Sequence record: NC_104190.1
Direction: 5' to 3' (one strand)
DNA from: Escherichia phage IME178
DNA length: 64,000 bases
In this document: piece by piece, positions 7,670 to 50,989 of the stretch
Layout: each line of letters opens with the position of its first letter
Position numbering within the stretch: position 1 is the first letter of the stretch
Position numbers and translations under genes: made by a program
The notes under the pieces: model-generated
Told to the model about the DNA's origin: nothing
Database searches by the model: none
The model's input: only the letters and a program-made list of their open reading frames with translations

Positions 7670-8640
7670 ATGACTAATGTAAAAGACTTTATTAAACGCT
7701 GTCAAGAAGCATATTATCAAGGTATGTCTTTAATCTCTGACGAAGAATATGATCGTCTGATTAAAAGATTTCCATTAGAAGAAGAGATCGGGCCTAAGGG
7801 TGATATTCCACATCTGTATCGTATGTATTCTTTACAGAAAGTTTATTATAATCGTGGAGATAAACCTCCGTTCAACCCGTTAGGTCAGGTAGAAACTGAT
7901 AAGTTAGATGGTTGTGCGATTTCTCTGTTATATATTAATGGAGAATTTGTTCAAGCACTAACTCGTGGTAATGGTATTCTAGGGAATGATGTCACAAGCA
8001 ACGTAAGATTGCTGAATATCCCTAAAAAGATTTCCCAAAAAGTACCTACTCAAATCACTGGTGAAGTTCTAATTACAAAAGAAGTAGAAAATAAACGTAA
8101 CTTTGCCTCTGGTGCTATTAACCTCAAAGATAGCGATGATTTCGTACAACGTATTGGGGAAGGTGGTTTAATCTTCGTTGCATATGGTATCCAGTGTTCT
8201 GCTGAATCTGTAGGTATTACAGAAGCGTACTTAAAAGATATGCTCTGGCTGGAGAATGAGACTTCTTAACAGTTGTTAATGTGCGTTCCTTCTTTAAGTG
8301 GATTCCGACGGATGGTAAAGTTGTTCGTATTAATGACAACAACAAATTCTTCCGTGAAGGCTGGACTAATAAATTTCCTCGTGGAGCATTCGCTATTAAA
8401 GAAGATGAAGAAGGCGAGATTACAACTCTTACTAAAGTTGAATGGCAGGTAGGGGCTTCTGGTAAAGTAACTCCAGTTGGTTATTTCGAATCGGTAATTA
8501 TTGATGATGCTACAATTGTTAAGGCGACTCTTAATAACGTTGATTATATTAACTCTCTTGATCTAGAGATCGGTTGCCAGATTCGAGTAATTCGTGCTGG
8601 TGGTGTAATCCCGTGCATAGTAGAGCGAGTATACGATTAA
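7670..8640 (+). CDS. NAD-dependent DNA ligase, N-terminal subunit (adenylation + OB domains); frame break near 8260-8269
   Basis: Two track ORFs (7670..8269, 199 aa, KLDG KxDG motif; 8281..8640, 119 aa) in different frames separated by 11 bp; together about 322 codons. Confidence 0.6.
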
Positions 8641-8692
8641 TATATGTAACCCTTTGCTACCCATCTACCATATAGGAATTATAAAGTGGTTA

Positions 8693-8721
8693 TTGACATT
8701 TTCGCCGCTTAGGTATATACT
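8693..8721 (+). promoter_or_regulatory. near-consensus sigma70 promoter (TTGACA-17-TATACT) inside the ligase spacer
   Basis: Followed by a 7-codon mini-ORF (MARVSKVS). Confidence 0.4.
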
Positions 8722-8785
8722 ATTATCATTCAGTTGAGGGATAGAAAGTTATGGCGAGGGTAAGCAAAGTTAGTTAAAATTGTAG

Positions 8786-8814
8786 TTGCTAAATGCTTAA
8801 ATACTTGCTATAAT
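8786..8814 (+). promoter_or_regulatory. sigma70-type early promoter (TTGCTA-17-TATAAT) with conserved leader
   Basis: Same family; leader AAATTGATAAGGAAG precedes ATG 8845. Confidence 0.5.
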
Positions 8815-8844
8815 ATTTATATAAATTGATAAGGAAGAAATTTG

Positions 8845-9615
8845 ATGAAAATCGAAATTCCAACACAATGTCCCTCTTGTGGTTCTAAGCTAGATCTTGT
8901 CAATGGACAATTATTCTGTCGTAATAAGTCCAACTGTCCAGCGCAATCAAGTAAGTTAATTGAGAACTTCTGTACAAAAATGAAGTTAAAGGGCTTTGGT
9001 CCAAAAACTATTGAGAAGCTGGAGCTGACGAAGATTTCAGAACTATTTTACCTAACCGAACAAGATTTGGTTAGAGCCGTGGGTAGCAAGGTTGCCGCTA
9101 AGTTAATTAGCGAATTAAATACTAAAGTTCGCGGAGACATTGACTTTGGTTCAGTTCTCGGTTCTTTAGGAATCCCTCTAATAGGAGAGGTTGCAGCAAA
9201 GAAATTATCCCAAAATTGCAACAGCTTCCATGATGTGAAGGCTGACGGCAAGGCTGGAGAAAACTATAAAGCCTGGCTAAATTCCCCACAAGGCAAGGAT
9301 GTTATCGAACTACCGTGGAAATTCTCAACTGGTGCTAAAGCTAAAACCGTCGTTACTGATGATTTAGTTGCCCAGCCAAATGGAATCGCGGTATGTATTA
9401 CCGGGTCTTTGCAAGACTTTGCAAATAGAACGGATGCAACAAACTATTTAGAAGGTCTAGGATATACGGTTAAGAAATCCGTTACCAAAGACGTCAAATA
9501 CCTGATCTGTGAGGATGAATCAAAACGTTCTTCCTCATCTTATAAGAAAGCCGAAACGAATGGGATAGAAATCCTGTCGATTAAAGAACTATTGGAGAAA
9601 AATAATAATGTCTAA
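8845..9615 (+). CDS. NAD-dependent DNA ligase, C-terminal subunit (Zn-finger, HhH, BRCT-like)
   Basis: CPSCGS...CRNKSNCPAQ zinc-finger motif; ORF track 8842..9615, ATG at 8845. Confidence 0.65.
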   Translation: MKIEIPTQCPSCGSKLDLVNGQLFCRNKSNCPAQSSKLIENFCTKMKLKGFGPKTIEKLELTKISELFYLTEQDLVRAVGSKVAAKLISELNTKVRGDIDFGSVLGSLGIPLIGEVAAKKLSQNCNSFHDVKADGKAGENYKAWLNSPQGKDVIELPWKFSTGAKAKTVVTDDLVAQPNGIAVCITGSLQDFANRTDATNYLEGLGYTVKKSVTKDVKYLICEDESKRSSSSYKKAETNGIEILSIKELLEKNNNV

Positions 9616-10375: not shown

Positions 10376-10392
10376 TCTGGTAAATTAAACCT

Positions 10393-10425
10393 AAGGGGAG
10401 GGGGCTATGCTCCTTCCCCTTTTTG
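10393..10425 (+). terminator. rho-independent terminator (GGGGAGGG...CCTTCCCC + TTTT)
   Basis: GC-rich hairpin and T-run directly after the D5-like stop. Confidence 0.6.
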
Positions 10426-10457
10426 CATTTAGAAGGCACGAAAGCGTGCAAAGGAGA

Positions 10458-11930
10458 ATGACCTTGTTTAACGTGCAAGCTGTAGTGTTGAAGATGCTTC
10501 TAGCTTCTGAACAGAAGCAAATAGCATTGGAAACATTCTCAAAACTGCATAAAGATCATTTTAATGACGCTTTCTCCTCAATTTACCAAGCCGTCCAGAA
10601 TTATTATAAAAAATATAACACAATGCCGTCCATTGACGCACTGATGCTTGAAGCTAATAGGAACGCCCGCCTTTCTCAAGCTCTAGTCGTCTTAGCTAAC
10701 ACTCAAATTCCAGAAGTGAGCATGGAACAGGCACTTGAAGTCCTAGAGGCTGAATATACACAGGATTTATTCCTGAAGCTTCTAGAAACAGACGTGCTTC
10801 AAGATTTAACAATGCTGGATCAGGGAGAAATTCTCAACCGAGTTGCCTCCCTTCACTTAAAATTAGAAGAGAAAGTAACGAATACTGGAAAAGTATTCAA
10901 CGCAGATAACATGCGTATTTTCCAGAGAGAAGAAGATACCAAACTGAACCTAATCGCTCTTGGTATTTGTAATGAGTTTGACGCTCAAATTGGTTTAGCT
11001 CGCACAGAAACGTTACTGCTTGGTGGTTGGCGTGGTACTGGTAAATCCATTATCTGTTCAAACATACAGGTTCAGCAATATTTGAATGGAGATATTGCTC
11101 CATACTTCTCAATTGAGATGAAAGAACATGAAGTATTTAGACGTAATCTAGCCATGTTAGCTGGTGTATCCGCACTAGCAATGCGTAATAATACTCTAGA
11201 AGGTGCAGCTCTGCTGAGATTAGCCAGAACTAGAGCTAGAATGTTTAATGGCGGTGAAGAGCTTTTCGATAACTTCGTTAAACAGTACACAATGGCTAAG
11301 ATGAGTGATTTCTACGATATGGAGAGTAAACTAATAGAAGGGTATGAACTACATACTCCTATGATTATCGTTTATGACCCTGAACTGTCCATTACAACAG
11401 TTGATGTAGAATTAAATAAATTAGTTGCTAGATATGGTGATAAAGTTACAGTAGCTTTATTGGACTATATTAACCAAACCCGACTTCCAGACTCTAAAAC
11501 CATTGATATGTATGACTGGAAAGAACAGATGGTTGTTAGCTCGTCTTTCAAATCTATCTGCCAGAAACATAACGTGGCTGGCGTAGCTCCTTACCAGATC
11601 GATCAAGATGGTAGAACACGTATGTCAAAGGGTATTCTTGATTCCGCAGACATGGCTGCTAATCTTAATGCTGCAAAAGCTGATAATGGTCAAGGTGCTA
11701 TTATGTTTGACTTCGTTAAGACTCGTTCTTCTGATAGCGTGAAGTTTATGCCTAAAATGAACTGGGAAACCTTGCGGATGGATAACACTACCAACCTAGC
11801 GATGGAAGATATATCTCAAATGGAAGCTGAGTTCGTTATCCCTATTGAGAAGGATAAGCCGGCTCAACCTAAACGTGCTAAGAAAGACAAAACCGAAAAT
11901 TCAACAGGTGAACAGGCCAGCGATATATGA
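10458..11930 (+). CDS. DnaB-like replicative DNA helicase
   Basis: Walker A GGWRGTGKS and FSIEM motif; track ORF starts at 10407 inside the terminator, ATG 10458 follows RBS AAGGAGA. Confidence 0.65.
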   Translation: MTLFNVQAVVLKMLLASEQKQIALETFSKLHKDHFNDAFSSIYQAVQNYYKKYNTMPSIDALMLEANRNARLSQALVVLANTQIPEVSMEQALEVLEAEYTQDLFLKLLETDVLQDLTMLDQGEILNRVASLHLKLEEKVTNTGKVFNADNMRIFQREEDTKLNLIALGICNEFDAQIGLARTETLLLGGWRGTGKSIICSNIQVQQYLNGDIAPYFSIEMKEHEVFRRNLAMLAGVSALAMRNNTLEGAALLRLARTRARMFNGGEELFDNFVKQYTMAKMSDFYDMESKLIEGYELHTPMIIVYDPELSITTVDVELNKLVARYGDKVTVALLDYINQTRLPDSKTIDMYDWKEQMVVSSSFKSICQKHNVAGVAPYQIDQDGRTRMSKGILDSADMAANLNAAKADNGQGAIMFDFVKTRSSDSVKFMPKMNWETLRMDNTTNLAMEDISQMEAEFVIPIEKDKPAQPKRAKKDKTENSTGEQASDI

Positions 11931-12818
11931 GTAGAATAACAGAACTACTTGATCTGAAAGGCATTGAATATAAAGACACAGGTGGGGACATCCTCATCTG
12001 TTGTCTCAATCCAGATCATGACGATAAACACCCAAGTTTGCGTATTGATCCTGAAACAGGTATTATGCACTGCTTGAGTTGTGGCTTCGGTAAAGGTATA
12101 CCGAGCATTTACCATTATTTTAATGAGACTCAGTACCGACAGTCCCCAAGGCTATCGCAAGTACGTAAAAAGATTTCAGAGATTAGGAATGGGTCAACGA
12201 ATCTTGCAATTCCTGAATCTGCTTACCTTTTCGAAGGTGATTTCCGAGGTATAAGTTCTAAGACCTTGAAGAAATATTTTGCTTTCCAACACCAAGCAGA
12301 CTGGGAAGGCAGAATTGTATTCCCAATCACAGATGCTGTTGGACGCAATATCCTATTTTTGGGTCGTTCTATAAACAGTTCTGCCCCTCCTAAATACTTA
12401 GTAAAACCAAAACAAGTTTCACCACCAATTTTTCCTGTACGATATAATACCCCAATTCTTATTCTAGTTGAAGGTATCTTTGATATGCTGAATCTAGAGG
12501 ATAATGGTATAGACTATGCTTCTTGTTGCTTCGGTACACATCAGTTTACTTCAGATAACATTGCAGATAAGTTTAGTCCGTATATTATTGCTGGTGTTAA
12601 AGTTGTTGTTATCTTACTAGATAATGATGCTTCTGGTAATAAAGCTGCACAAGCACTGGCTAAGCTAATTCGTACAAAAAACGCGTTTAACACCTGTAGT
12701 TGCTAACTTTCTTCTGCCTGAAGGTAAAGACCCAGGTGACTTAAGTAAAGAAGAAATTGATATGTTAGCAAAACGTATTGAAATTTTAGTTGCTGAATCG
12801 CTTAAAGATTTGGTATAA
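11927..12818 (+). CDS. DnaG-like DNA primase (zinc-binding + TOPRIM); frame break at A6 run near 12676-12681
   Basis: CCLNPDHDDKHPSLRIDPETGIMHCLSCGFGKG zinc motif; track ORF ends 12706 but the +1 frame continues with LPEGKDPGDL (TOPRIM-like) to stop at 12818. Confidence 0.65.
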
Positions 12819-12867
12819 TAGTCCTAAATAACTGAGGAGCTACTATGGAATATGTATATATATTTAT

Positions 12868-13176
12868 GTGGATGTTCCAGTGTATGATAGTATAACACAC
12901 AAAGAGGTTAAACTAGAGCGGTTTACAACACTGGAGTCCCTTAATAAACGAAAGAATTTCCATTTATTTGGTGATCCTAAATTACCTGCATCTTATATTT
13001 ACTTTAAAGTAAAAGATACAGGTCAAGAGGTATACCTAACATATGATTGGGCTGTTGTAGAAAATACTGAGCAATCTATGAAAGCGCTAGATGCTTTTCT
13101 GCGTATAGATGAAGAATTTCGGGTACTAGAAAAGCAGCGCAATGAAATGCGTAAATTACTTCACACCTATAAATAG
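12868..13176 (+). CDS. hypothetical protein
   Basis: 102-aa ORF with alternative start; an RBS-preceded ATG at 12845 is in another frame, so the start is uncertain. Confidence 0.4.
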   Translation: MDVPVYDSITHKEVKLERFTTLESLNKRKNFHLFGDPKLPASYIYFKVKDTGQEVYLTYDWAVVENTEQSMKALDAFLRIDEEFRVLEKQRNEMRKLLHTYK

Positions 13177-13179
13177 TAT

Positions 13180-13208
13180 TTGCTATTATCCCAATATTTT
13201 GATATAAT
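13180..13208 (+). promoter_or_regulatory. sigma70-type early promoter (TTGCTA-17-TATAAT)
   Basis: Upstream of the polymerase gene; leader carries GAGGAG. Confidence 0.5.
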
Positions 13209-13269
13209 ATATTGGTAAGTTAGAGAAGAAACACTGAAGTTATACTTACTTACCAAGAGGAGATTAAAT

Positions 13270-17676: not shown

Positions 17677-17760
17677 ATGATGTATAATATACACATAAAT
17701 TTGAGAGAGAAAGTTTCGGATTGATAAGAAAGTCCGAAGCAGAAAAATAAAAAATTTTAG

Positions 17761-26104: not shown

Positions 26105-26150
26105 TATAGAATCCTTAATTTTATGGGAGCATTATATAATGCTCCTGTAC

Positions 26151-28766: not shown

Positions 28767-30840
28767 TTACCTTATGTGAATATATCCATTTACTAGATCT
28801 ATCTTCATTTTGTACGCAGCTTCTGGATTTCCTGATAATGCTGCATTTCTATCATAAATAGTGTTAACCCCTATCTGGGATAAGAAAGCATTACCTGCCA
28901 CTATTTTATCCGCAGTAATAGTGCCATTAACTACCATATTACCATGCAGTACCATGGCCGGGTTGATCCAACCATAGCCATTCCATTGTCTAGTAAATGC
29001 TGTCTGCGGAGCACCACTATTAAATTGAGTTAGCACATCATATTTAACAGGAGGGGAGCCAAAGTTACTTTGGAAGAATGCATTAGCTTGGTTATCATCC
29101 CACCCGCCTAGCCCAGCTATTCCAACGGAATACATGCCAGGACCCCTTTGACCATCTGCACCAATCGTACCTTCAGTACCGCTCCATTGAACTACATCAG
29201 ACCAGCTAGTACCTTCTAATAGCTTATTAGTAACAGGATCTAGAGTACCAGTAGTAGCGTAGATATTCTGAGTCATATCAGTACGATTAGGAGGTGTTTT
29301 AGACCAACCAGGGGGTGGATAATCCTGTTCTAAGGGCTTAGCAGGTAGATTCTTACCTAGTTTGTAAACAAATACTGTTTGCTTACCCTGCATCCCAGTA
29401 CCAATATCTACGTCTCCATTAGGAGTACCAATAACAACTCCACTAGAAATACGAAGAGTATCGCCATCATAGCGTATCCACTGAGTAGCATTACCTATAT
29501 CTAACTTTGGCTTAGCAGAAGTGTTATCCATTCCCATCCAGATACCAGATTTTGTATCCCCCCAAGTTTTACCCTGAGTATATATTGCAGGGTTATCTTG
29601 GCCAGTTAGATTGGTCATTACAAAGTTAGCAGCATTGATAGTTTTAGTTATAACACTACCATCAACGTTAACTATCTTTTTAACCGGATCAAAAGATATT
29701 GGTGCTTTTCCTTCAGCATCTAGAAGACCTATATTAATAGCACCGGTAGCGGCATCAATTAAAAAATGTTTGTTTCCAAGTAGATCCATCTTTGATCTTA
29801 CCCTTAATATACGCATAGTTTACTTCAATACCCGTTTCATTAACAAAACTATTGTCAAGAGGAGTATCCTCATTTAGTGTAAAAGTCTGTACTGCAGAAT
29901 CTGTAACATCTTGAGCATCTGGTCCCCATGCTATAGAAGAGACTTTAAATTTATGCTCAATTTTCCACGGAAACGATATAATAGTTGCCGCTTGTGCAGC
30001 ACCTACGTTAATTTTTTGAGCTTTAGTCCATCCAGTTTTTTTGAATTCTACTGAATCTATATAAGAAACAACAAATTCGCGAACGTTAGCGCCAGCTCCT
30101 CTATACCATTCCCATTGTACACGGAGATCATATCTTTCTTTACCATCAGCAATCCTTGCAGCTTTGAAAGTAATGTTGTTAGGAGCAGTAGGAGGTACAA
30201 AGTTATACTCTACAGTAAGAACTTTGGAAAATTCAAAGTATCCAGAAGAGTCTACAGTTACACCATCTGGCATGGTAACTTGCCCAGATATGCGTACTTT
30301 GTAATCCCCAACAGGAACACCCCCAAATCTAATAGTGGGAGATAGTGGACCTATATAATACTTTACCCACGGGCTATTTGAAGGTTGAGTACTTTTTAAC
30401 TCAATAGTACAATAACTAGCTTCTCCTGTAGTCTCTATAACTACTATAGGGGCACCTACACCCACATCTACTGGATCAGCCTCTGATCTAGCGGCAGTAA
30501 TAGTAGGTTTTCTCTTAGTACTAAAGGTAGTTTTATTGGATAAGTTTATGCCAATTTTAGCCTCTAATAGCTCAGAGTCTATAATAGAGTCATAGAAAGC
30601 CCCTTGAACCTCATAAGAAGTTGAAGGGGTTAGATTATTAATCATTACAAAGAAAGTATCTATACCGGTATAGTCACGTCTATCAATACTTTCTCCTAAC
30701 TTTAACCAAAAGGATCTACCAATAACGTCATAATCAGTATATATAGAGTGCTGGACATACGCCATTGTATATCCAGTCATTATACTATTTAAGACCATTT
30801 TGGCTGGTGCATTATTCGAAATCATTAAATGGATGCCCAC
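28767..30840 (-). CDS. baseplate/tail-tip protein pb4-like; frame break near 29755-29816
   Basis: Two overlapping track ORFs (30840..29755, 361 aa; 29816..28767, 349 aa) in different frames; total span about 690 codons, close to T5 pb4. Confidence 0.5.
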
Positions 30841-33674
30841 TCCACAGACTGTTCCCCCTCATCTCCTTCTGCTCTAATACGAAAATATAGTTTTCTATTG
30901 ATCCCTAGAGCATCACTGTTATGGAGAGCAAAATCTGCCTTATTATACATTAATAAATAGTCATAAGTATACTGATTTTCAATACGTACACTTCTTAGCA
31001 TTCTATTCTGGGAGTCATAGATTTCCAGAGTATAGAATATACTTTCTATTATATCTTCTTCTGGTATCCTATCCCAAGCTAGTTTTACATCTGGGCCTAC
31101 AAATTCAGTTACATCCCTGGAAGCCGTATTAGTTACCCTAAAATTAGATACTACACTTAGGTTTTTAGCAGAGTTAAGTTCTATAGATAATGTTACTGGA
31201 GAACTTCTTCTACCATTTATATCCACAGCCCTTATTTCAAATATCGCTAAGCCTGCAGGCTCTCCAATTATCTCTTGGATCATGCGTTCATTGGGATTTG
31301 TTTCTAGTTGCTGCACAATATAAGGTTCAGCATGACCGGAATGCACGATAGAGTAATAAACTACGTTATTAGTTAAGCTTGGAAGCCAAGATAACTCACC
31401 ATTTTTTCCTATAGAACCAACTAAACCACCAGGTGTAGGGGTATATTTAAAATCCCTAGGAGGAAGAACGTTGTTACTAATATCTGGTATATCATTACCA
31501 CTATTATCTACTTGATCAGAGTTGATAAATACATCTTCCCCATACTCCTGTAGGGTAACATTTATCTTTCCTTCCCTAGAGTTTTCGACTTCATCTACTA
31601 AAAAGTACTTCTTATCCCATCCGTAACGGTCGTAGGTAAATGCAATAGCATCGTTAGGCTCAATACCAATGAATTGATATGGTAAAGAAAATGAGAGGGT
31701 TCTAGAATACCTAGATTTCTTAAGTTCTCTGTCTGCAAAACTTCTAGCAGTATAGTAGTTAGTTATATTTGCAAAAGATAACTGTAATTTTTGTCTAAAT
31801 TTTTATCTTGCTCTTTATATTTAGAGTTGTAAAAGGTAATAGAGTTAGTTTTCCAGCTAAGAGCTGGGTCTACGATGGATGCTTGAACTGAGTTGAATTT
31901 ATTTCTACCAGTAGTATCTGATAGCTCTAAATCACCATAAGTATCCAGAAAATTAATCTCTAATGGAGTATTAGAATATTTTTCTACAGTAATCCTATAT
32001 TGACCAGATAAGTTGTTAATAGCCCCACCGTAGGACTCTAGCAAACCTTGCACGTTTTTTAAATACTGATTCAGATGTGTCTAGAATAGTATTCATTTGT
32101 ACTATTTGTCTATTTTCTGCTAATGGATCAGTCCACCCAACATATCTCCAGTATGGCTGCCAGGATACTTGGTAAGATTCATCTATAATATCTAAGATAG
32201 CAGCTTCTTGTACCAATTGTTGGAGAGGGAACTGATCAATAGCAATGTTTGCACCATACCTATCTGAAGTTAAGTAGTCAAGTGTTTGCCAAATACCATT
32301 TAAACTAGTACTATTAGCAGTTACTCTACCATCAGAATGATAGATTTTTATCTTCTTACCCTGAATCTCAGCACTAACTTCTGGAATCTCAGTTCTATTT
32401 TCATTAATAGTAAAGCGTACTACCGCGTATGCAGTATCTAATAGTTTATATCTAGCATCCCAGTACTCAGGTCCATTGCCGTTCATATTTTGGAGATAGA
32501 ACCCACGTTCCTTCGCTATATTTACTAATACTTCAGAAGCCGTTTGATCAGCTTTTCCATGATAAGTCCAAATCCTTATATCACCATTACCATCGTTATA
32601 CTTATATTCCTGGCCATGCACAGAAGGACTACTAGAAGATATTCCTGATGCTATTCTTTGCATGGTGTCTCCGGCTACTTTTTTAACACCGAAACAGGTT
32701 CTAGCAGAACTATCATTAGAGTCCATACAAATCATGGGGTTATCCCCAAAGGAAAAGTCAAGAAAACCGTCTATCTCTCCTTCAGCAAAAGCATATACTA
32801 CATAAACTATATTAGGATTGTGTAATTCCGTATCCGCAAAAATAGGTATTCCCGGTATTTTCTGTACACCATAAACTACTGGTATATACTTAGCAGCAAG
32901 GTTAAAATCTATATCTACTTCTTTAGTAACAGTCTCATAATACTTTTTAAGACTATAACTTCTAGATAGTCCAAATAGCTTTTTCTTAGACTTTAGCTTG
33001 TATCTTTCTTCCTGTACCTGATACTTTGCTAGAATAGAGATACTTTTATTGGCGTGAAAGAAACCGTAGTCTTCTTGGTACTCAAGTCTTTTAGCCCCGT
33101 TAGATGGAACTAATTGTCCTGCTACAACCTCAAGCCCTCTATGAGAAGCATCATCAGTAAATCTACCGTTAACCCTATCAAAATCATAGAATTGGTTAGA
33201 ACAATTCCAAGTAATTGTAGAGGTTCCAACCCCAGAAATACTAATGTTGTCCTTAATACCTCCACCAGTAATTCTCCCTCTAAAGTATAATAAAGGGCCA
33301 TTTGTGTCTGGGTCTACAGGTAAAATAGAACCATCCTCTGTAATAATTGCTTGGTGGATTGATACTAGTCTATCTAAAAAGGACACCCCATTCTGCACTA
33401 GTTTCAGTACTTCATCCTGCGCTGTACCTGTAATAGTAAAAGATAGACTGCCAATAGATAAATCTCTGTTTTGTTTATGTGTGCTAATAGACTTAACTTT
33501 ACCGGCCTGGTACAAAATACCATTATATAGTACATCTCTAAAATAGTCAGTTAAGTAAATAAAAGCAGTACTAGTACCAGTAGAGCCGGGTAATTCTAGA
33601 GAAATTAGACTAGCAGTTTTTATTCTGCTATTATTTTTTAAGTAGTTTCTAGCACTATCTAATATTTTTTTCAT
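30825..33674 (-). CDS. baseplate hub protein pb3-like; two compensating frame breaks
   Basis: Span is exactly 950 codons (T5 pb3 is 949 aa). Frame holds 33674..32016, shifts for 32053..31763, then returns to the original frame from about 31802 to 30825 (hand translation is open and coding-like). Confidence 0.6.
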
Positions 33675-34284
33675 AGACTTTCCCGTAAATTTAATGAGAT
33701 GTTGGAGTATGTTCCGTTATTATTTAGTGTAGATCCAAAAGCATCACCATTCATGAGTTTTGTTCTAAATAGTATTCCATTAAATACTGGCTTCTCCGCT
33801 CCAGTAGTAGTTATAAATAAATCAGGGTATAAGTTTATGGACCATGTATTACCTGATTTGTTAAATGATGTTATTTTATATACTTTTGGGTGGTTAGATA
33901 GCTTAAATAGATCCCCTGGTTTTGGAGTACCTGTAAGAAGCCCTTTTGTATCCATAGTTATATTAGAACCCTTCTGTCCAGCAGGTATACTTACTAGACT
34001 AGTATTACCTCTAACTCTAAAAGCTTCGTATTGGGGTAATATAACGTCTATATAACCACCAGTCCTTTTGTATTCTAGAATAAAAGCATCTAGAACACTA
34101 TATTCATCTGGAAATAATTCTGGATAAGAAATATTTATACCCCAGTATTGAGCAGATACCTTACTTCGTTAACTTTACCATTTGGTAACTCATCACGAAT
34201 TACTGGGTCATTGTCAATCAGGTTAACACTTTCGAATCCTAAGCCTGAAAGTTCTGGATTCGTGTATGGGTCTGGTAATCTCAT
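33671..34284 (-). CDS. distal tail protein pb9-like; frame break
   Basis: ATG 34284 after AGGAG opens a frame that stops near 34090; C-terminal part is track ORF 33955..33671 in another frame; span about 204 codons as in T5 pb9. Confidence 0.5.
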
Positions 34285-34393: not shown

Positions 34394-37300
34394 TTAAGAA
34401 TTTCCTAATGTTTTCAGACTAGCACCGTTCTCATTCAGAGCTAATTCTACTGCGTCTCTTAGAGCACTACTATTACTAGAAGCAAATTCTCTGAAACTTG
34501 CAGCATCCATAGCACTAATATTCAGGATGATAGGTCTTCCTGAAGTTGAGTTAGATGAAGTTTTTAGCTCATCATTAGGTGTAGCTTTCATAGGAACCAT
34601 AGGGGTAACTACTTCTGTACCATGCTCACCCATTTGATAGCTAACCCCAGGGTACATATTACCACCCTCAGCACGAGGAACGAAGGAGTTAGCACCGCCT
34701 ATACCTTTATCGCCTCGAATATAAGATAATTCACCTGCGTTAGCAGACATAGACACATCTATATTCTTTTGACGCTCTCCTAAGGTTAAGTAACTAGTTG
34801 TATCCGCTCCAGAATCTGCAATACTTGACATACCAGATGCAGAAGATGCTTGAGCAAGAGCTAAGGCACCTGCCAAACCTGCCGCCACCATCAAAGGAAT
34901 AGAGAACGGGTACGGTACAGCTGTCGCCGCTTGCATTACAGCTACTGCAGTTTGGATGATGATCTGCTTCTTAGCTGCGTCTTGTTGAATCTTCAACTTT
35001 TCAGCTTCTAGTTTCTTCAACTTAGCTTTAGATGCTTCTGATTTACCATCACGTTTCTGCTCTGCTGCAATAGCCTGATCAATTGCACTAACCTGTTGAC
35101 TAGTACTATATTGAATCATAGAGGCCACAGTCTGCATACCTGCTGCGATCGTGGAAGTAGTGTCTAAAGACCCCATAGAGAACTGAATCATAGCATTGGT
35201 TAAATTACCCATGCTTTGAGCTACAGCAGTTGCTTCGGAATTTAACTCAGATAGTTTAGAAATTGCCTGATCATAAGAAGCCATTCTATTTCCCATATCA
35301 GCAAAATCTTTATCTTCTCCAGATAGTCCAGTTGTAGGAGTGTACACAGCACCTAAAGAAGATCCAACAGAAGCTTGCATCTCCGCATTTCTCTGTGCCC
35401 TTAAACCTGCTAGTTGTGCCCTAGTTTCAGCTATCTTTTTATTATATTCCGCTTGTGCCGCAGCATTACCTAATGTTTTCTGCTTTAAGTCTTCATATAA
35501 TTTTAGCTGTTCCTGTAAGCGCTCCGCATTTCCCATTAATGGTTTAGCAGTAAATTGTCTTTGCTGTTCTTCCTCTCTACCAGCAGCCATTGAAGCAATC
35601 TGATCTTGGCGGAATTTCCAGATTTCACGTTCAATTTGGGCTTGAGCACGTCTAGACTGTTCCGCCTCTTTCTGTTTATCAGCTTGTTTTGTGTACCATT
35701 CGTACTTCTCTTTTTCAACGGTCAATTCAAGATTTAACTGTGCTAGACGATACTGAGTATCTGTCATAGTACGGTTATTTAAGAGGGCTATCTCACGATC
35801 TACACCCAGAATTTTATCTGTGTAATCCTTAACCTTCTTCTGAGCCTCCATACCCTGATTGGTAAGTTTAAGTTTCTCCAGCTGAATTTTTTCAATTTCT
35901 TTCTCAACAGCTTTATTTCCCTGATTAGTTTGAAGTACACGGCGTAAAGCAGCTTCTTGCTCTTCTAACTGTTGGAGTTCTAAACGCCTACCGGCTTCCT
36001 GTGCCTTTTCTTTATCTTTAGTTTGATTGTATACGTCAGCTATCTTCTGTTGAACTGCTAACTGGTTCTTAGTCTCATTACCAGTTAGTTTAACGTACTC
36101 AGATAAGGCCTGAGACGCAGTTTTCATTTCAGACAGAGTATTGTAGCCTAGGTTAAGATTTTTAACATATTCATCAGCACTCTTACCAGTACCTAGAGAT
36201 AGAGATTCTATGTTTTTTATAGCATCTGCTAAAGTAGCACTAGTTTTAGCAGCAGTATCTGTATTCTGAGCAACGTTCTGTATATCATTAGCTAAGTCAC
36301 TAGCAGTTTTCTTAGTCTGATTGTACGCTTTCTGCTGCTCAGTTAGTCCTTTTAATACAGTAGAGTTAAAATCGTATACAGCGCCAGGATCTGTAGAATC
36401 TCTCTGTAGATTAATCTGTTTCTGAAACTGTGGATTAGCTTTTGCAGCAGCAGCTCCAGCAGCTTGATACGCTGATTTCCAAGCATTGAGGTTCTCTGTA
36501 GAATCCTCTACTTCCTTACCAAGTCTAGTTACTTGTAGACCCATAGCTGCAGTTTCTGCTACAAATTGCTTATTGGCCTCCGAAGCACCTGCTGCTGCAA
36601 GACCAATAGGAATACCTTCGCCAACTTGACGTATAGCTAGTTTTGTATAGAAATCTGCTTGTTCCATTCGTTTATCGAACTCAGATTTTAGCTTATTACG
36701 CTTATCAAGAGATTCCTTATACATATCTAGAGCTTTATTATAGCCTTCTTCAGAAGCAGCTAAACTTAAAGCAACAGCACCAACGTTGGTAGGGTCTATC
36801 TGTCTATTAGTTTTTTCTTGAGCTCTAGCTGCCTCCGCAGATATAGAAGCCTGAGATGTATAAAATACTGTATTGATAGCATCAATTACCGGCCCTAAAT
36901 ACTTAGCAGCAGCTTGTTGTATTTTTCTTAGTGCAGCATCTGCATTAGCAGCAAATTGCTCCCATGGAGTTGCACGTAGTACTTCATCTAGGTAGCCAAA
37001 CCGCTTAGTAGATTCAGCAATTACCGCGTTAGCGTATGCTTGTTGTTTCTGGAAAGTGGTAAGACTATTAACATTATATGTTATACCTGTGTTTGCAGCA
37101 TTTAACTGTTTAACATAATCAGCATATGCGTCATTAAGACGGATGGTGACACCAAGTTCATCCAGAAGTTCGATTTCTTGTTTAGATACGCCCTTAATTA
37201 CACGGTTAAGTGCATCAGTCATATCAACACCAAGAACAGCAGCAGCACGACGAGCTACTAAACCAAATTTATTAAGTTGTTCGGCATCAAATCCATAAGC

Positions 37301-38074
37301 AGATGCTGAAGATGCCTGTCTCATTGCTTCCTCAAAAGAAATAGCATATCCAGCAGCTTCTTGTAGTGATCTAGCAAGGGTCTGAACAGGAGTACCTGTC
37401 TGAGTACCTACTATAACACCAAATTTTTCTAGACGATTTAGCTGATCACCTAGTTTAAGTTGTTCAAATGCTGATTGCAAAACGAAGATGTTGGAAGCAA
37501 GAGCTGCGTACATAATAGGTAAACTACCACCGATCTTAGCCATTGCCGCAAAATCACGAGTTGCACCACGTGCTGAACCAGAAGTATTACCAATAGCTCT
37601 AGAAGCTCTACCAGCGGCACCAGCAGTATCATTAAAACCCCTAGCTGTGCCACCTAATGCTCTATTAGTATCATATAATCTATCCTGGACTTTTTCTGTT
37701 GCAGCTGCAACATCATTACCCATTGTTTTAACAGATCTAGAAACTCCATCGAATCCAATTTCTAGTTTATCTGTTACTTCAATAAGCTGGATAGCCAGGT
37801 AGTCTAGCTTATCACCAATACCATCAATGGATTTAGTGATACCAGCCATACCCCTACTAGCTTGCATTTTAGTAAGACTTTTCGCTGCTCTGTCTGCTGC
37901 CCTCTCAATGGAATAAAGAGTTCTGGGCATTTTACCTAACTGCTCATTTGTCAGTTCGGAAGCAGCAGCAGCATTTTCCAACGCATCAGATACGTTTTCA
38001 ATAGACTTTGCAGTACGAGTTGCCCCCTTCTGTTTAACGTCTATTAGTAATTCTCGTATTAGCTTATCAGTCAT
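34394..38074 (-). CDS. tail tape-measure protein (pb2-like)
   Basis: 1226-aa ORF, coiled-coil rich with hydrophobic segments and Gly-rich C-terminal region; sits between chaperone and tip genes. Confidence 0.8.
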   Translation of the reverse strand: MTDKLIRELLIDVKQKGATRTAKSIENVSDALENAAAASELTNEQLGKMPRTLYSIERAADRAAKSLTKMQASRGMAGITKSIDGIGDKLDYLAIQLIEVTDKLEIGFDGVSRSVKTMGNDVAAATEKVQDRLYDTNRALGGTARGFNDTAGAAGRASRAIGNTSGSARGATRDFAAMAKIGGSLPIMYAALASNIFVLQSAFEQLKLGDQLNRLEKFGVIVGTQTGTPVQTLARSLQEAAGYAISFEEAMRQASSASAYGFDAEQLNKFGLVARRAAAVLGVDMTDALNRVIKGVSKQEIELLDELGVTIRLNDAYADYVKQLNAANTGITYNVNSLTTFQKQQAYANAVIAESTKRFGYLDEVLRATPWEQFAANADAALRKIQQAAAKYLGPVIDAINTVFYTSQASISAEAARAQEKTNRQIDPTNVGAVALSLAASEEGYNKALDMYKESLDKRNKLKSEFDKRMEQADFYTKLAIRQVGEGIPIGLAAAGASEANKQFVAETAAMGLQVTRLGKEVEDSTENLNAWKSAYQAAGAAAAKANPQFQKQINLQRDSTDPGAVYDFNSTVLKGLTEQQKAYNQTKKTASDLANDIQNVAQNTDTAAKTSATLADAIKNIESLSLGTGKSADEYVKNLNLGYNTLSEMKTASQALSEYVKLTGNETKNQLAVQQKIADVYNQTKDKEKAQEAGRRLELQQLEEQEAALRRVLQTNQGNKAVEKEIEKIQLEKLKLTNQGMEAQKKVKDYTDKILGVDREIALLNNRTMTDTQYRLAQLNLELTVEKEKYEWYTKQADKQKEAEQSRRAQAQIEREIWKFRQDQIASMAAGREEEQQRQFTAKPLMGNAERLQEQLKLYEDLKQKTLGNAAAQAEYNKKIAETRAQLAGLRAQRNAEMQASVGSSLGAVYTPTTGLSGEDKDFADMGNRMASYDQAISKLSELNSEATAVAQSMGNLTNAMIQFSMGSLDTTSTIAAGMQTVASMIQYSTSQQVSAIDQAIAAEQKRDGKSEASKAKLKKLEAEKLKIQQDAAKKQIIIQTAVAVMQAATAVPYPFSIPLMVAAGLAGALALAQASSASGMSSIADSGADTTSYLTLGERQKNIDVSMSANAGELSYIRGDKGIGGANSFVPRAEGGNMYPGVSYQMGEHGTEVVTPMVPMKATPNDELKTSSNSTSGRPIILNISAMDAASFREFASSNSSALRDAVELALNENGASLKTLGNS

Positions 38075-38156
38075 GTTTTATTTTTCCCAATAAAAAGGCT
38101 CTGGGCAAATCACCCAGAGCCAAGCCTCATCGTGGAACGCCCATTGGAGGAAAATT

Positions 38157-38586: not shown

Positions 38587-38991
38587 TTACGCTTTTGAGC
38601 TACGAAAAGTGTCTAAGTGGAACACTGTCTGGTTGATCCAAGAATCAAACGCAGCAGAGTTCTGCATGAGCATTACAGCATTGTCGCGGCTAAAAGGAAC
38701 TTCAGTAGCAGGATCAGCATCTGTTTCAATCAGCATCAGTTTTTCAACGTCACCTACAGTCAAACCAGTCCAACCTTTAATAGCTGCGTCAACAAATGCT
38801 TCAATGAACTTATCATCATCCTGGACTTGCATCAGCGTACCATTAACCCATTCATCACGTTTAGCAGAAGAAATAACACGTTTAGAGGTAGCACGAGACA
38901 TATAGTTAAGTTCTAGTTTAAAGTTCGGCATACCTGGGTAGGAAAGAGTAATAGTACGAGTATCAAGAGTAATATCTTTTAAATTAATCAT
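38587..38991 (-). CDS. tail assembly chaperone (G-like)
   Basis: 134-aa ORF immediately upstream of the tape-measure operon position. Confidence 0.55.
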   Translation of the reverse strand: MINLKDITLDTRTITLSYPGMPNFKLELNYMSRATSKRVISSAKRDEWVNGTLMQVQDDDKFIEAFVDAAIKGWTGLTVGDVEKLMLIETDADPATEVPFSRDNAVMLMQNSAAFDSWINQTVFHLDTFRSSKA

Positions 38992-39888
38992 TTTTTAATT
39001 TCTCCAAAGAAATCTATTCTCACTGGGTCTGAAGAAGCAGTAGGTATAATATCCCACTCAACTCTATACACATCTGAGAGATCTAGGCGTTTTGTAATAC
39101 GTGCTGAAGGAAAATCTATAGAAATATTATTATTTCTTATATTTAAAGGTACATCTGTCTCCGGTTCGATATTGTAAACCATATCTCCTGCAAAACGTTT
39201 TTAAGTAATATAGAGAAATGGTTGCCGAAGCATTCATTTCATTTACATAAGCTCTTTTATTATTATAAATTTTATTTATATCAAAAACACTCTTATCTTC
39301 TCTCCAAGAGCACTGCTGCTGGAAAGATAAGGAGGCAGAGATAAGACCGGGTAAGATGCTACCATTAGTAGAAGCTATTACTGGGCTATAAGACATTACT
39401 TCACCCTGTATAATAGAAGCTGCTTCTCTATAGGTAGATACTTCTGAGAATTTCCCAGACTCAATACCAACATTAAGAATTGGTATGTTCTTATCTAAAG
39501 AAAAATCTACCGTAGATACATAACAGTTTTCAAAATATACACAGTTACTATCTTTGTTTACTATATAGATATTGAATATAATAGGTTCAATATTACTACT
39601 ATATAGTGGGAGTAAGAAAGTATTACCTTTTCTATCAAAACCTAACCATTCAAAGAAGTTAGCCTCTGTAAGAGTATTACTGAAATTTACGGCTAGAGAG
39701 ATAGAAGAGGGGGTTTGAGCATTTATAATAGAGTCTGCATAGTTAGTTCTACGATGAACAGTCCTACGAAGAGTCTTGAATTCCTCGTAGGAAGTCTGTA
39801 TATCATAGTTTGATAGGGCATCAAAATGAAATGCCCTACCATCATACTCAACTATAACTTTTGACTCTCTCATTAGAGAGTAGTACAT
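38988..39888 (-). CDS. tail protein p140-like; frame break near 39130-39182
   Basis: Track ORFs 39888..39130 (252 aa) and 39182..38988 (64 aa) overlap in different frames; span about 300 codons (T5 p140 is 298 aa). Confidence 0.5.
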
Positions 39889-41799: not shown

Positions 41800-41802
41800 T
41801 TA

Positions 41803-42571
41803 TTAGGTTCCTTGATTAACCTTGATTTTATATCTAGAGTGAATCAGGTCTCTTGCAGCTTTTGCTATAGCCTCACCAATAAGTTTTTGGGGGTTTCTAG
41901 CGCCTGGGTAAGGTCGTAGAGATAATCTTTGATATGTAGATACTGCTGGATTAAATACAGAATATGGACGTACCATATAATTATACGTCACGTTTAATTC
42001 AGGAGCACCTTTACTAGTCTCTGCATCTCTAAGCATAACATCCTTAATTTTCAGAGAATTTGCAAACCTGCCAGTTCTAAATTTTAATGGCGCTCCTGTC
42101 TTTTTCATATCCTTTATTAAGTACTCTTTAGCAACTATCTCTAATATAACCTTCATATTGCTATTTGATACAAAACGTCCGGAAGCACCTGTTACTGCAC
42201 CTGAGTATCCATCCTCTACGTCTCTAGGATCCCCAAAGTTTACCTGTACTCTGCCTGTAGAACGTTTTTTTACCTACAGAGGATTTTTTACCCGCGGTTG
42301 CTTGTATTAAGTTCTCTAGAGCACCTAAATCCCCCGAAAGATCTAAACTAGAGGATACTGCTTTTAGTATAGAGGCTGTTCTAACATCAAGAAGATCTTG
42401 TGATACGGGTTTTGAAAACTTAAAAGATACTTGAGCAACAGTACCATCTCTGGTAGGATCTTTTAACCCTGTCTCAACAGAATACACAACAGTATTCTTA
42501 TTATTTTCAGATCGTCCTGCAGTATCTAGCTGCTCTTTAATAATTTGTTTAGCTAGATCGGAAAGAGACAT
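41803..42571 (-). CDS. head-tail joining protein (p143-like); frame break near 42156-42224
   Basis: Track ORFs 42571..42224 (115 aa) and 42156..41803 (117 aa) in different frames; T-runs in the gap; span about 256 codons. Confidence 0.45.
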
Positions 42572-44536: not shown

Positions 44537-45168
44537 TTATTCTTTAACGTAGCCTAAAGCTATCGCAAGTTTTTCTAGTTCAGAAAGATTACGTTCTTGA
44601 GCTGGGACAGCTTTAGAACTTATTGCAGTAAAAGATTTACGCCATTCAGTGTAATCATGACCATTCATGCTCTTAGCGAGATTGAATGTTGAGTCCTGAT
44701 TACAAGGTACAGAAACTACCGAACTTCGTATAGTTCTAAATCTTTAATAATAAATATATCAGTAGCTTCATCCCACTCTGCATCTAGGCAGCGGAATCCG
44801 ATACTAAAAGTTTTCAGTACACCGTTTCTAATTAGTGAAAAGATAGCCGGATCAGAACTTTCATAGATCTCGCATTCGATTTCGAGACCCATTTCAGTAG
44901 GGTTAAGATCAATACACTTGCCGATTGGACGACGATGGTCGTGTCCGAAAAGAATAATCGGGTTTTTCATATAGTTAGCAAGTGCATTAGATGTTTTCCA
45001 TGCCGAAGCAGGAATTACATCACCAGCACGATCTTTACTAATTGTATTAGCGAATCCACGGATCTTTACAACACCTTCTTTGGATTCGCTATCAATAGAT
45101 TTAATATAAGCATCTAAATGAACCGGTGCTGATTTTAACTTGTTATAGTCAATAGCAGCTTGTGTCAT
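44537..45168 (-). CDS. prohead protease (pb11-like); frame break near 44716-44730
   Basis: Track ORF 45168..44716 (150 aa, GHDH motif); coding continues in another frame to a stop at 44537; span 210 codons + stop less one base. Confidence 0.55.
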
Positions 45169-45171
45169 TTA

Positions 45172-47308: not shown

Positions 47309-47422
47309 AGTGTTCTCCTCAACTGTATGAATATAGTATACATAATCGTATCGAATTTGTAAAGGGGATTTTAAAATGCAGGAATGGGATACCAACTGAG
47401 TAGTATCCCTTCCTATACTTAT

Positions 47423-48739
47423 TTATTTACCACGGGAAATAGAGTAAATTCCATAGCGCAGAGCATCACAGAGGTGAGAGTTAGCATCATGACGTGGTTT
47501 TTCACGTGATAATTTTTCTTCACCTTCTTGGAAATCCCACTTGTAATTCTGCAATGCGTGAATTAATGAGGAACATGAAGCATCCACAATAATCTTGCCT
47601 TGTTGGAATAGTGCTTGCAAGCATGCTAGACCATCTAGGACAGATTTTTTAGCTGGAGCTGATGCAATTTCATGTTCATAAGCTAAGTCCTGACGGAACT
47701 GAGCTGCTGCAGAGTCAACAAAAATACGATCAACTTTATAACGATCTATACAGTGCTGAATATACGCAGCATGTTGCGCTGTAGTTTTCTCCGCCTGCTG
47801 GTACTCTTCTAATACATAGTAAGTATCTGTATCATAGTGGTACTTAATAGTAAGAACTGCTGTAGGATCACGATAACCAACGTCAATACCAAGCAACGTT
47901 TCGAATGCTTCATCATCTTTAAAGAAGTGACGCATACCTTTGAGATCTTTAACATGGTCGATGGCATTAAAGGTATCGAAGATCTGACCTTCGAATACAG
48001 AAAAGTCAGCCTCATATTCCTGGCGGAAGTAGTTTTTACTAACTGTGCGACGTGCTTCTTCGATATCATTCAGATCAGCACGTGGGTTATCACGATATGT
48101 ACCATGAATAGATACCCAGTTAGGTAATGTATCATCAAATCCATAGGCGTAAAACTCTTTAAACCAGTTACCCCCACGAGGAGTGGAAATAAATAGAGCC
48201 TTAGAATTAGGCTTATCTAGAGTAGGACGCAACTGAACTCTAAAGGCATCACCACCCACATCTGAAATTGCCGCCTCATCGAATATGATAAAGTCATATG
48301 AACGTCCAACTGCGGAGTCAGCCTGCGCCGCAGAAGCTAGTTTAAACAGAGAACCATTAGCCAACTCTATTTCTTTATCTTTAGCGTTTTCACGTTCAGT
48401 TTGTAGGCCATACTTCTTAATAAGACCACGAATCTGAGACCATCCAATGTTGGCCAGTGAGTAGTTAGGAGCAACTACTAGCACCTTTACGTTAGGCTCC
48501 AGCAATTTTAGGAATCCAAGTGTATATGCTATAAAGGATTTGCCTACACGGCGTGACACACACGCCGTTACAAAACGATGTCTAGGGTCCTCTAAAGCAT
48601 TGATGATTGCTATTTGAGGACCATTAGGTGTAATACCTTCTTGTGCTAGTATTCCTGAAACAGGTAGACGAAAGAAACGTTTATCTATCCCGAAATCAAT
48701 AACATCTACTGTGTTAACGTAGGGTCTTGATACTTCCAT
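47423..48739 (-). CDS. terminase large subunit
   Basis: 438 aa (the length of T5 TerL); Walker A-like VSRRVGKS, Walker B IIFDEAA, C-terminal nuclease-like region. Confidence 0.85.
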   Translation of the reverse strand: MEVSRPYVNTVDVIDFGIDKRFFRLPVSGILAQEGITPNGPQIAIINALEDPRHRFVTACVSRRVGKSFIAYTLGFLKLLEPNVKVLVVAPNYSLANIGWSQIRGLIKKYGLQTERENAKDKEIELANGSLFKLASAAQADSAVGRSYDFIIFDEAAISDVGGDAFRVQLRPTLDKPNSKALFISTPRGGNWFKEFYAYGFDDTLPNWVSIHGTYRDNPRADLNDIEEARRTVSKNYFRQEYEADFSVFEGQIFDTFNAIDHVKDLKGMRHFFKDDEAFETLLGIDVGYRDPTAVLTIKYHYDTDTYYVLEEYQQAEKTTAQHAAYIQHCIDRYKVDRIFVDSAAAQFRQDLAYEHEIASAPAKKSVLDGLACLQALFQQGKIIVDASCSSLIHALQNYKWDFQEGEEKLSREKPRHDANSHLCDALRYGIYSISRGK

Positions 48740-49221
48740 TACTTCTTACCTCCAGTAGCTAGGGAAGTAATTAAGTCCATGTAGTTTTGATCCCCAGCTC
48801 CAGCAATAATATTATTCTGGATATTGGTCTGGTTAGCTGGAGTACGGGCTGCTGCCTTCACTTTCTCCAATTCTACCATCATTTTCATTTCTTCCATCTT
48901 CATCTTGTGTGCCTTCCAGAGAATGTCCATAATATCCTGGTCAGAACCCATGCCGGTTTCTTCTAGTTCCTCTAGTTTACGCTTAATAACTTCATCTAGA
49001 ACACCAAACAAACGATCTCTGTTACGGAATCCACTTTCCATAAAAATATCGTTTAAGTAGTTCTTAACTTCGCTACGATTCATAATATCTCGGAAAGCAA
49101 TTTCGGACATTCCAAGACTACGTGCGGCAGAAGGCACATCACTCCCGCACTGTAAATAAGCTTCAATCACATCCATCCCTTCAGGGGACATAAGATCTGG
49201 TACTAATACATCATTTGCCAT
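48739..49221 (-). CDS. putative terminase small subunit / DNA-binding protein
   Basis: 160 aa with N-terminal HTH-like segment ([22 protein letters not shown]); directly upstream of TerL with start/stop overlap. Confidence 0.45.
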
Positions 49222-49231
49222 ATTTCCTCCT

Positions 49232-50989
49232 TTAGGTAAGGCGTTGAACTGTTACTCTTAATCTAGGTAGGAAAACTGCACTACCTAAACTTACGTGCAT
49301 AACTACCCCTAACTCTACATTTCCGTTCCCCAGATTTTTAGCAGTGTATATAAAACTATTTCTACTTAGGGCATTGTTAGGTGTGTATCTAAAAGCAGAT
49401 GTAGTATGAAAAGGTACTAAATACCCTACTGGTAGTGTTAAAATCTGGTGGAATATCGCGTCTCCATTGCTATAACTATATGCTCTTCTTCCTTGCACTT
49501 GAAACACACCGTTATTCCATGTATTAGCAGGAACACCTGCACAGTTAAGATTACCTGATATAACTTCAGTGGTAAGAATTACTGTAGCATTGCCACCCGG
49601 TATACCTAGCCCAATAGTTGATAAACCAACGTATCTATCTCCTGTTCCCGGGTAGCTAGGAGTAATATCATCTCCCATATAAGAACTACCTACATTTCCA
49701 CCAAAAAGTCGTAATGGAACTGCTGAAGGCCCCCAAACAACCCCGTGTTCATTACCGATAGTATTATCATTAGAGTTTACGTACCATTGCTTACCAGCTC
49801 CGAATTTGTAAATACTAATTTGAGACTTAGCCCCTCCATAGTCTACAGGAGACCATAAACTCCCGTTACTAGAACCTACAAGTTCACACCTTGCAGTGGT
49901 ATCCCCAAAGGCCCCAGTGTACGCTGCATTATTTCCAATATATTCCATATCTGGTCTATAACCTAAGTTACCGAAAGCGTTCTGGTTAATAAACTTGTAT
50001 CCAGTATTGGGAAGACTAACCCCTTTAATTATGAAATTAGAAGGAGATATAAGAATATCTGAACCAGTAAAAGGATTACCAGAGATACTCATACCACCAT
50101 TTGAGTATCTTAAATTCAAAACGTACCAAATAACTTTAGTAGGGGTTATGTTATACCAATCCTGTAATATTGTAGCGTTACCAGATTGGTTAGCTAAATT
50201 AGTTGTAGAACCCCTACAAACAAATCTGTTACCTCCATCATGATACATAGTATTTACATTACCAGGAAGACCTTGTCTTACCCCACCATACCCACGTATG
50301 TTAGAGTTACAAACATAAAACCAATCGTGCCCTCTGTGTGCTGATCCTAAAGGAGACATCCATCCTGGGTCCCAGTAATATTGGTTATTACCATCTATAG
50401 GTACTGTACTACTATTAGTAGGGAATCCTAACTGTGCAAAAGCTTCTGCAACAGTAATACCTACTGGAGCTCCTGCACCTGGCCTAACTATACCATGATA
50501 CGTACTATGTAAGGTAGTACCCCCTGTACCATTCCTAGAAATAGATTCTTCATGTCCTATAGATGGATTATAGTTATATGTACCAGATGCCAGGCTATTA
50601 CCAAATGCAAATCCACTAGTCTGGGAAACACTAGCAAAAGATCTAAAAGGATCTGCTTGAGTGGCAACTATAGTTTGACCCACCTTACTCTGAGTACCAT
50701 TAAGAAAAGCCCTATGAGTACCATTTATCTCAATAGCAGTTAGTATAACTCTACCAGGATCGTTAGATTTAATATTTATTATGTCAGCGGGCATTTGACA
50801 TACAAAAAACCCATTACCGGCATCACCTAACCCAGACTCATAAGTACCATCAACTAGGACAAATGGCATGTCACTATGAAAAATACTATTGGCATTTGGA
50901 CTATAGTGACGATTAATGTCACCACCAGATTCAGTATTTAAAGATAGTACGGTCTTACCATCGCTATATTTTCCAGCGAAAAAACCCAT
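49232..50989 (-). CDS. receptor-binding tail protein (pb5-like)
   Basis: 585-aa Gly/Asn/Ser/Thr-rich protein encoded divergently from a lipoprotein gene, the arrangement known for T5 oad(pb5)/llp. Confidence 0.6.

Follow-up and report, generated by a model that had tools for sequence, protein, structure and literature searches.

In a stretch of Escherichia phage IME178 DNA of 64,000 nucleotides (nt; sequence record NC_104190.1, hereafter the window), eight conserved genes between positions 7670 and 50989 are interrupted by nine frame breaks. We conclude that these breaks are very probably homopolymer-length errors in the consensus of the deposited record, MZ398246.1, and not features of the phage. 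We favour this reading because the changes are private to IME178, homopolymeric, bidirectional, similarly dense in non-coding DNA and each perfectly repairable. The accession of IME178 and its genus, Tequintavirus, are those listed in PMC10373560, and the title of Li et al. (2023), as cited in the same paper, presents the phage as a lytic isolate. The full record is 108,588 base pairs (bp) long and its proteins are numbered QYC972xx; the products of ten ORFs (open reading frames) of the window were matched to them by exact sequence.

The closest annotated phage records are T5-like and about 95-96% identical to IME178, among them HMD-P3, fp01, EC148 and MM-1. For the comparison we took the syntenic region of about 50 kb, with its annotation, from each of eight GenBank relatives (T5, HMD-P3, EC148, MM-1, fp01, AKFV33, T5_ev212 and SSP1). 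Breaks were detected by searching 41 proteins of HMD-P3, the closest relative, against the window with tblastn. The anatomy of each site was then read from a DNA alignment to HMD-P3 and from eight-way alignments of 81 nt around the site. Run lengths were also counted over all fetched loci by a fuzzy search on the flanking sequences; in the resulting counts some genomes occur twice, as GenBank phages are repeated in IMG/VR. Three junctions (protease, primase and pb9) were additionally scanned in IMG/VR with patterns that accept either allele, and the count at the p143 junction rests on the loci fetched for the protease. All run lengths are stated on the plus strand.

Exactly eight genes gave adjacent high-scoring segment pairs (HSPs) in different frames, with nine frame switches in total. 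They are the ligase, primase, pb4, pb3 (two breaks), pb9, p140, p143 and protease genes that an initial annotation of the window had described as split across frames. The fragments are 92-100% identical to their HMD-P3 orthologues. The remaining conserved genes compared, about 33, are full length, and the search with HMD-P3 proteins found no further broken conserved gene in 7670-50989. The gene identities assigned in the initial annotation proved right, both by the orthologue matches and by Pfam. Matches above the curated cut-offs were obtained for ligA, primase, pb9, p140, p143, protease and the pb4 spike, and the confirmed domains are ligase adenylation and OB, zinc ribbon and Toprim, pb9, Baseplate_Tube_p140, T5_p143, Peptidase_S78 and the PB4 spike. 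The N-terminal fragment of pb3 had no Pfam match, and this gene was identified through annotated pb3 or baseplate hub proteins of 949 amino acids (aa).

At every coding break a run of A or T is one base longer or shorter than in the relatives, whose flanking sequence is otherwise nearly identical (Table 1). Five of the nine changes are insertions and four are deletions. In the order of the table, the corresponding tracts of the relatives are 2, 5, 5, 5, 6, 2, 4, 6 and 3 nt long and invariant. The run length written for IME178 was found in none of the 3 to 29 loci fetched at any of the nine coding junctions. When the closest relatives were compared at each break, as the initial annotation had proposed, IME178 was the sole outlier at all nine sites. 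Two Logan contigs (L188 and L189) encode a receptor-binding protein (RBP) identical to that of IME178; their DNA identity is 94-97%, and neither has a break at the p143 or the protease site. The initial annotation had seen homopolymers at some of the breaks, which was correct for the runs but too cautious in number, since all nine breaks lie at mononucleotide runs. Its coordinates for the A6 run in the primase were exact, and the T6 run that it placed near 32040 in pb3 exists, though further along the window, as given in the table.

Table 1. Genes, frame breaks and further private indels of IME178, with the state in relatives or after one-base repair
Feature	Coordinates	Strand	As written in IME178	Relatives or repaired product
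ligA (NAD-dependent DNA ligase subunit A)	7670..8640	+	7670-8269 (199 aa, QYC97238.1) and next-frame piece to 8640	323 aa repaired
ligA break	8261	+	A1; one base missing	A2 (14/14 fetched loci)
DnaG-like primase	11927..12818	+	11927-12706 (259 aa, QYC97243.1); final 46 codons in other frame	296 aa repaired
Primase break	12676..12681	+	A6; one base extra	A5 (27/27 fetched loci; IMG/VR 19/19)
pb4 (central straight fibre)	28767..30825	-	N-terminal ~355 codons and C-terminal 28767-29816	685 aa repaired
pb4 break	29761..29766		A6; one base extra	Five bases in 8/8 aligned relatives (AAAAA in 2, AAGAA in 6)
pb3 (baseplate hub protein)	30825..33674	-	32016-33674 (552 aa, QYC97263.1); 91-codon middle in other frame; 322-codon C-terminal piece	949 aa repaired
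pb3 first break	32055..32060		T6; one base extra	T5 (20/20 fetched loci)
pb3 second break	31788..31792		T5; one base missing	T6 (10/10 fetched loci)
pb9 (distal tail protein)	33671..34284	-	Split at ~codon 42	204 aa repaired
pb9 break	34163		A1; one base missing	A2 (27/27 fetched loci; IMG/VR 19/19)
p140 (baseplate tube protein)	38988..39888	-	39130-39888 (252 aa, QYC97269.1) and C-terminal piece	299 aa repaired
p140 break	39198..39202		T5; one base extra	T4 (19/19 fetched loci)
p143 (tail completion protein family)	41803..42571	-	42224-42571 (115 aa, QYC97273.1) and C-terminal piece	255 aa repaired
p143 break	42265..42271		T7; one base extra	T6 (28/28 fetched loci; L188 and L189 also T6)
Prohead protease (Peptidase_S78)	44537..45168	-	44716-45168 (150 aa, QYC97277.1) and 61-codon C-terminal piece	210 aa repaired
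Protease break	44722..44723		A2; one base missing	A3 (29/29 fetched loci; IMG/VR 27/27)
Intergenic run, upstream of promoter-like TTGCTA...TATAAT	17749..17754		A6; private to IME178	A5 (13/13 relatives)
Intergenic GT insertion (2 bp), directly after ligA stop codon	8646..8647		GT present	Absent in 8/8 relatives
DUF7415 gene	889..1315	+	CC deletion (2 bp) at ~959/960	142 aa

Repair of a single base per break gave open reading frames (ORFs) of 323, 296, 685, 949, 204, 299, 255 and 210 aa without internal stops. These are the exact lengths of the homologues, in line with the earlier observation that the summed spans of the fragments match them. As written, a stop codon is reached within a few codons of each break. 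Six of the truncated products are found verbatim in NCBI as IME178 proteins (QYC97238.1, QYC97243.1, QYC97263.1, QYC97269.1, QYC97273.1 and QYC97277.1), and therefore the breaks are present in the deposited record MZ398246.1 itself.

The tblastn matches abut or slightly overlap at each break, and the Pfam profiles are continuous across it in six of the eight repaired genes (the ligase adenylation domain, Toprim, the pb9 A domain, p140, p143 and Peptidase_S78). In ligA the HSPs cover HMD-P3 residues 1-197 and 198-323, with DNA_ligase_aden at residues 47-200 and DNA_ligase_OB at 252-321 of the repaired protein. The primase matches in residues 1-251 and 251-296, and its Toprim domain (179-271) crosses the break at about codon 251. 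In pb9 the HSPs span residues 1-42 and 42-204 and the N-terminal profile of the A domain (residues 3-86) runs across the break. The HSPs of p140 cover 1-233 and 230-296 and those of p143 cover 1-108 and 101-255; after repair, Baseplate_Tube_p140 aligns over 1-297 and T5_p143 over 1-255 without interruption. The S78 domain (32-167) crosses the protease break at codon 149, where the HSPs (1-149 and 150-210) also change frame. The pb4 HSPs cover residues 1-355 and 352-685, and the PB4_spike domain sits within the C-terminal fragment.

The pb3 gene is the only one with two breaks, and its HSPs cover residues 1-539, 538-628 and 628-949. The two indels, 270 nt apart, are a gain and a loss, and the sequence after the second is therefore back in the original frame. 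The initial annotation had kept a genuine compensated frameshift as an alternative for this gene. We rejected it, since in the upstream frame the 91-codon stretch runs into a stop at codon 553 and has 13 stops in all. Its match to pb3 residues 538-628, at 97.8%, is obtained in the shifted frame.

We then asked how unusual this number of indels is. An automatic all-against-all screen, in which indels were clustered and those unique to one lineage and of a length not divisible by three were retained, returned 13 for IME178 and between 0 and 2 for each of the eight relatives (about 50 kb each). On inspection the unique indels of the relatives were all intergenic or at gene edges and none lay within a gene body; an example is the pb4/pb3 junction of T5, where the start and stop codons overlap in the other phages. 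When the indels at 53430 and 38092-38096 are subtracted from the 13 of IME178, eleven remain, namely the nine coding breaks, the intergenic run at 17749-17754 and the GT insertion at 8646-8647. Conserved coding sequence holds 9 of 12 IME178 indels and 0 of the 7 listed for the relatives (Fisher p = 0.003, from small numbers; the total of 12 retains 38092-38096, and the 7 are 6 distinct sites, as the entries of EC148 and T5_ev212 are the same site). This coding fraction of 9/12 is near the coding share of the region, which means that selection has not filtered the IME178 indels. Runs of at least 4 nt, which cover 5.8% of the region, contain six of the nine breaks (binomial p = 3e-6). The density of the indels is about one per 3.6-3.9 kb of the region.

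To see the traces of selection around the breaks, we calculated the ratio of non-synonymous to synonymous substitution rates (dN/dS) by the Nei-Gojobori method for the repaired genes. Against HMD-P3 the ratio was 0.046 upstream and 0.074 downstream of the breaks, and against EC148 it was 0.098 and 0.101, respectively. Since the values match on both sides, the codons after the breaks have been under purifying selection for essentially the whole divergence from the relatives. The lesions thus have no evolutionary age. Beyond the one base per break, we found no secondary lesions in the eight genes, that is, no added stops, larger deletions or rearrangements. The preference of the initial annotation for indel errors over pseudogenisation is borne out by these results: the one-base changes are private and repairable, dN/dS does not rise, and similar indels occur in intergenic DNA.

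Outside the eight genes, the intergenic indels at 17749-17754 and 8646-8647 probably belong to the same error class as the coding breaks. A ninth affected gene, the DUF7415 gene, lies outside the range covered by the initial annotation. The CC deletion shifts its first ~24 codons out of frame, and in the written sequence the ORF starts anew at 899. The best 12 GenBank matches to the 471-nt query of this gene all span 473 nt, and the CC deletion is therefore private to IME178. With further HMD-P3 proteins, tblastn found no other frame switch in the rest of the window. The two 2-bp events (GT at 8646-8647 and CC at ~959) are less typical of a homopolymer artefact. Several other one-base differences in run length were considered as errors and rejected. 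The variant at 26119 is shared with fp01, that at 28768 with T5 and SSP1, that at 38092-38096 with three IMG/VR loci, and fp01 has the same variant at 53430; as these states are shared, we take all four for natural polymorphisms between genes or at gene edges. We also rejected the runs at 57437, 57558 and 57639, as they vary among the few relatives available there.

If the breaks are consensus errors, the lengths of short A/T runs would have been miscalled by one base during base-calling or consensus building, with five over-calls and four under-calls in coding DNA and a minimum of one further miscall between genes. The assembly would have been neither polished nor checked against relatives. 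Gene calling would then have yielded two or three ORFs in place of every affected gene, and these pieces would have been annotated and released as proteins. The mixture of gains and losses in runs down to 2 nt suggests flow-based chemistry or a low-coverage long-read consensus, which would fit better than typical Illumina data.

The functions of the affected genes point in the same direction. Four of them encode the proteins that build the T5 tail tip (pb9, pb3, pb4 and p140), and a fifth encodes p143, a tail protein detected by mass spectrometry (PMC10038345). The other three, for the protease, the primase and the ligase subunit, serve core functions in morphogenesis and replication. No phage that forms plaques can have lost all eight genes in its majority genotype, and the IME178 phage itself almost certainly has intact genes.

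Some points nevertheless weigh against consensus errors. The technical cause is something we infer from comparing sequences and did not observe. Three of the breaks lie in runs of just 2-3 nt, where most platforms are accurate. Replication slippage also prefers mononucleotide runs, and by itself the homopolymer context therefore cannot tell errors from real mutations. In addition, the A/T bias of the indels is not significant in this AT-rich genome, which has 478 A/T runs of at least 4 nt and 102 such G/C runs.

Replication slippage leads to the alternative that survives best, although we consider it very unlikely: the indels would be real in the sequenced DNA, as recent slippage mutations of the contingency-locus or mutator style, carried in the stock by defective genomes or sub-populations that happened to dominate the consensus. 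Homopolymer slippage is a genuine mutation mechanism of phages, and for T2 and T4 hypermutable homopolymers of at least 6 nt, termed 'contingency loci', are reported in a 2025 preprint (PMC12633550). All IME178 breaks are in mononucleotide runs, and the lack of downstream decay would also be compatible with very recent events. However, nine simultaneous knock-outs of tail-tip, protease, primase and ligase genes are impossible as the majority genotype of a plaque-forming lytic phage. The contingency-locus variants are reversible minorities (mean of about 3e-4 per read), and such repeats are scarce in genes for infection (e.g. tail fibres) and for replication, which the authors regard as probably essential (PMC12633550). 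At just two of the nine IME178 sites do the relatives have a run of at least 6 nt, at three sites the run is 2-3 nt, and no relative, with about 20-29 independent genomes per site among them, varies in length at any of the nine coding sites. We therefore rejected an identity with contingency loci, which the sites do not match in tract length, in class of gene or in their constancy among relatives. The chance seems slimmer still that the written lengths are true and that the stock carried a high load of slippage in essential genes, for instance through a mutator polymerase or through defective genomes propagated by co-infection and complemented at high multiplicity. If it were so, IME178 would offer a natural example of rampant frameshifting of the contingency-like kind in a T5-like phage.

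We give next to no credence to programmed recoding, in which the written sequence would be correct and functional and the frames would be joined by +1/-1 ribosomal frameshifting or by transcriptional slippage at A/T runs. Tailed phages do use programmed frameshifts in their tail-chaperone genes, and some of the breaks are in T7, T6 or A6 runs, which are weakly slippery. Such programmed shifts are conserved, yet all the relatives read through each of the nine sites in a single frame. There is no repeat to slip on at 8261 and 34163, where a single A is written, or at 44722-44723 (AA), and shifts in both directions would be required, two of them in pb3 alone. Transcriptional slippage is known to be efficient from run lengths of about 8-9 upwards, and the longest IME178 run is 7 (T7). 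Moreover, nine low-efficiency events cannot supply virion and replication proteins. Genuine pseudogenisation, with IME178 as a decaying, non-functional T5-like remnant or a defective genome, is just as improbable: several essential genes are interrupted, as in decaying prophages, but selection is not relaxed (dN/dS of 0.07-0.10 downstream, like upstream), the lesions stand alone, the other genes compared are full length, the compensated reading of pb3 fails on its stops, and IME178 was cultured as a lytic isolate and belongs to a strictly virulent genus.

The feature is thus a data-quality flaw of the deposited sequence and not biology, and it has spread. The truncated IME178 products are present in NCBI nr and UniRef, where several of them represent their 90% clusters. 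At the density found here, the 108.6-kb record probably holds roughly 30 such errors. The same clusters contain other T5-like truncations, namely primases of 197 aa (Klebsiella phage vB_Kpn_3) and 110 aa (Salmonella phage SE18), and vB_EcoS_VAH1 contributes an 89-aa ligase fragment, so frame-break artefacts seem common in T5-like phage records. For genome scans, a combination of several unique one-base homopolymer indels, perfect repairability and no decay should lead to classification as an artefact.

Many short NCBI entries labelled 'Enterococcus faecalis, partial' (MFP90..., from contigs of 300-1000 bp) share 90% clusters with T5-like ligase, protease and p143. The clusters concerned are those of the 7670-8269, 44716-45168 and 42224-42571 products. 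This looks like contamination of bacterial assemblies by T5-like phage.

The annotation of the record also affects the identity of the tail proteins, as pb3, p140 and the tape-measure protein are all labelled 'tail fiber protein'. The ORF at 34394-38074 (QYC97266.1, 1226 aa), which bears this label, is the homologue of the tape-measure protein pb2. A 2023 study in J Virol took QYC97266.1 as the receptor-binding protein of IME178, and IME178 is an outlier in its RBP tree (PMC10373560). Owing to the generic annotation of the record, this comparative study thus used the tape-measure protein as RBP. The true RBP, encoded at 49232-50989 (QYC97283.1, 585 aa, Pfam Phage_T5_RBP5), bears the label 'hypothetical protein' and falls into one group with the RBPs of AKFV33, fp01 and EC148, which are also 585 aa long; the AKFV33 annotation notes a similarity to BF23. 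By its sequence relationships, IME178 may not be FhuA-dependent at all. Next to the RBP gene lies a receptor-blocking (Cor/Llp-like) gene (51075-51341). Just upstream of its start, at 51066, a short GA repeat is 2 bp (GA) shorter in IME178 than in Logan contig L188, a deletion that the unique-indel screen did not flag.

Two further loci differ among the relatives. Between the primase and DNA polymerase genes IME178 has an insert of about 380 bp (12820-13198) with a 102-aa ORF at 12868-13176 that has no Pfam match. HMD-P3 lacks this ORF, and phage MM-1 encodes a hypothetical protein of 99% identity to it at the corresponding place. The lateral tail-fibre gene (26151-28340) is a single ORF of 729 aa with internal repeats. 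At the same locus HMD-P3 and fp01 have two overlapping ORFs annotated (481 + 222 aa in HMD-P3). The records of HMD-P3 and fp01 may themselves be split there, or the repeat number may really vary.

Among known systems, IME178 can be compared with its Tequintavirus relatives (HMD-P3, EC148, MM-1, fp01, AKFV33, T5_ev212 and SSP1) and T5. Gene order and gene lengths are the same across the region and the repaired proteins are 90-100% identical. The nine frame breaks occur in IME178 only, whereas the relatives have at most two lineage-specific 1-bp indels each, intergenic or at gene edges. With tail-chaperone frameshifting of the lambda gpG/gpGT type, IME178 shares two overlapping frames that would have to be joined. 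However, the lambda type is conserved and uses a slippery heptamer, whereas the ORFs of the IME178 relatives are single and several of the sites have no slippery sequence. The phage contingency loci (PMC12633550) share with IME178 a frameshift through a one-base homopolymer change within phage genes, but they are minority variants in tracts of at least 6 nt, in contrast to the consensus changes of IME178, which are mostly in tracts below 6 nt that are invariant in relatives. The classic error-prone homopolymers of sequencing are longer than the three IME178 sites of 2-3 nt. Nevertheless, the homopolymer errors of unpolished flow-based or long-read assemblies are likewise gains and losses of one base in runs, private to one record and spread over coding and non-coding DNA, and they likewise leave adjacent ORFs whose lengths sum to that of the intact homologue.

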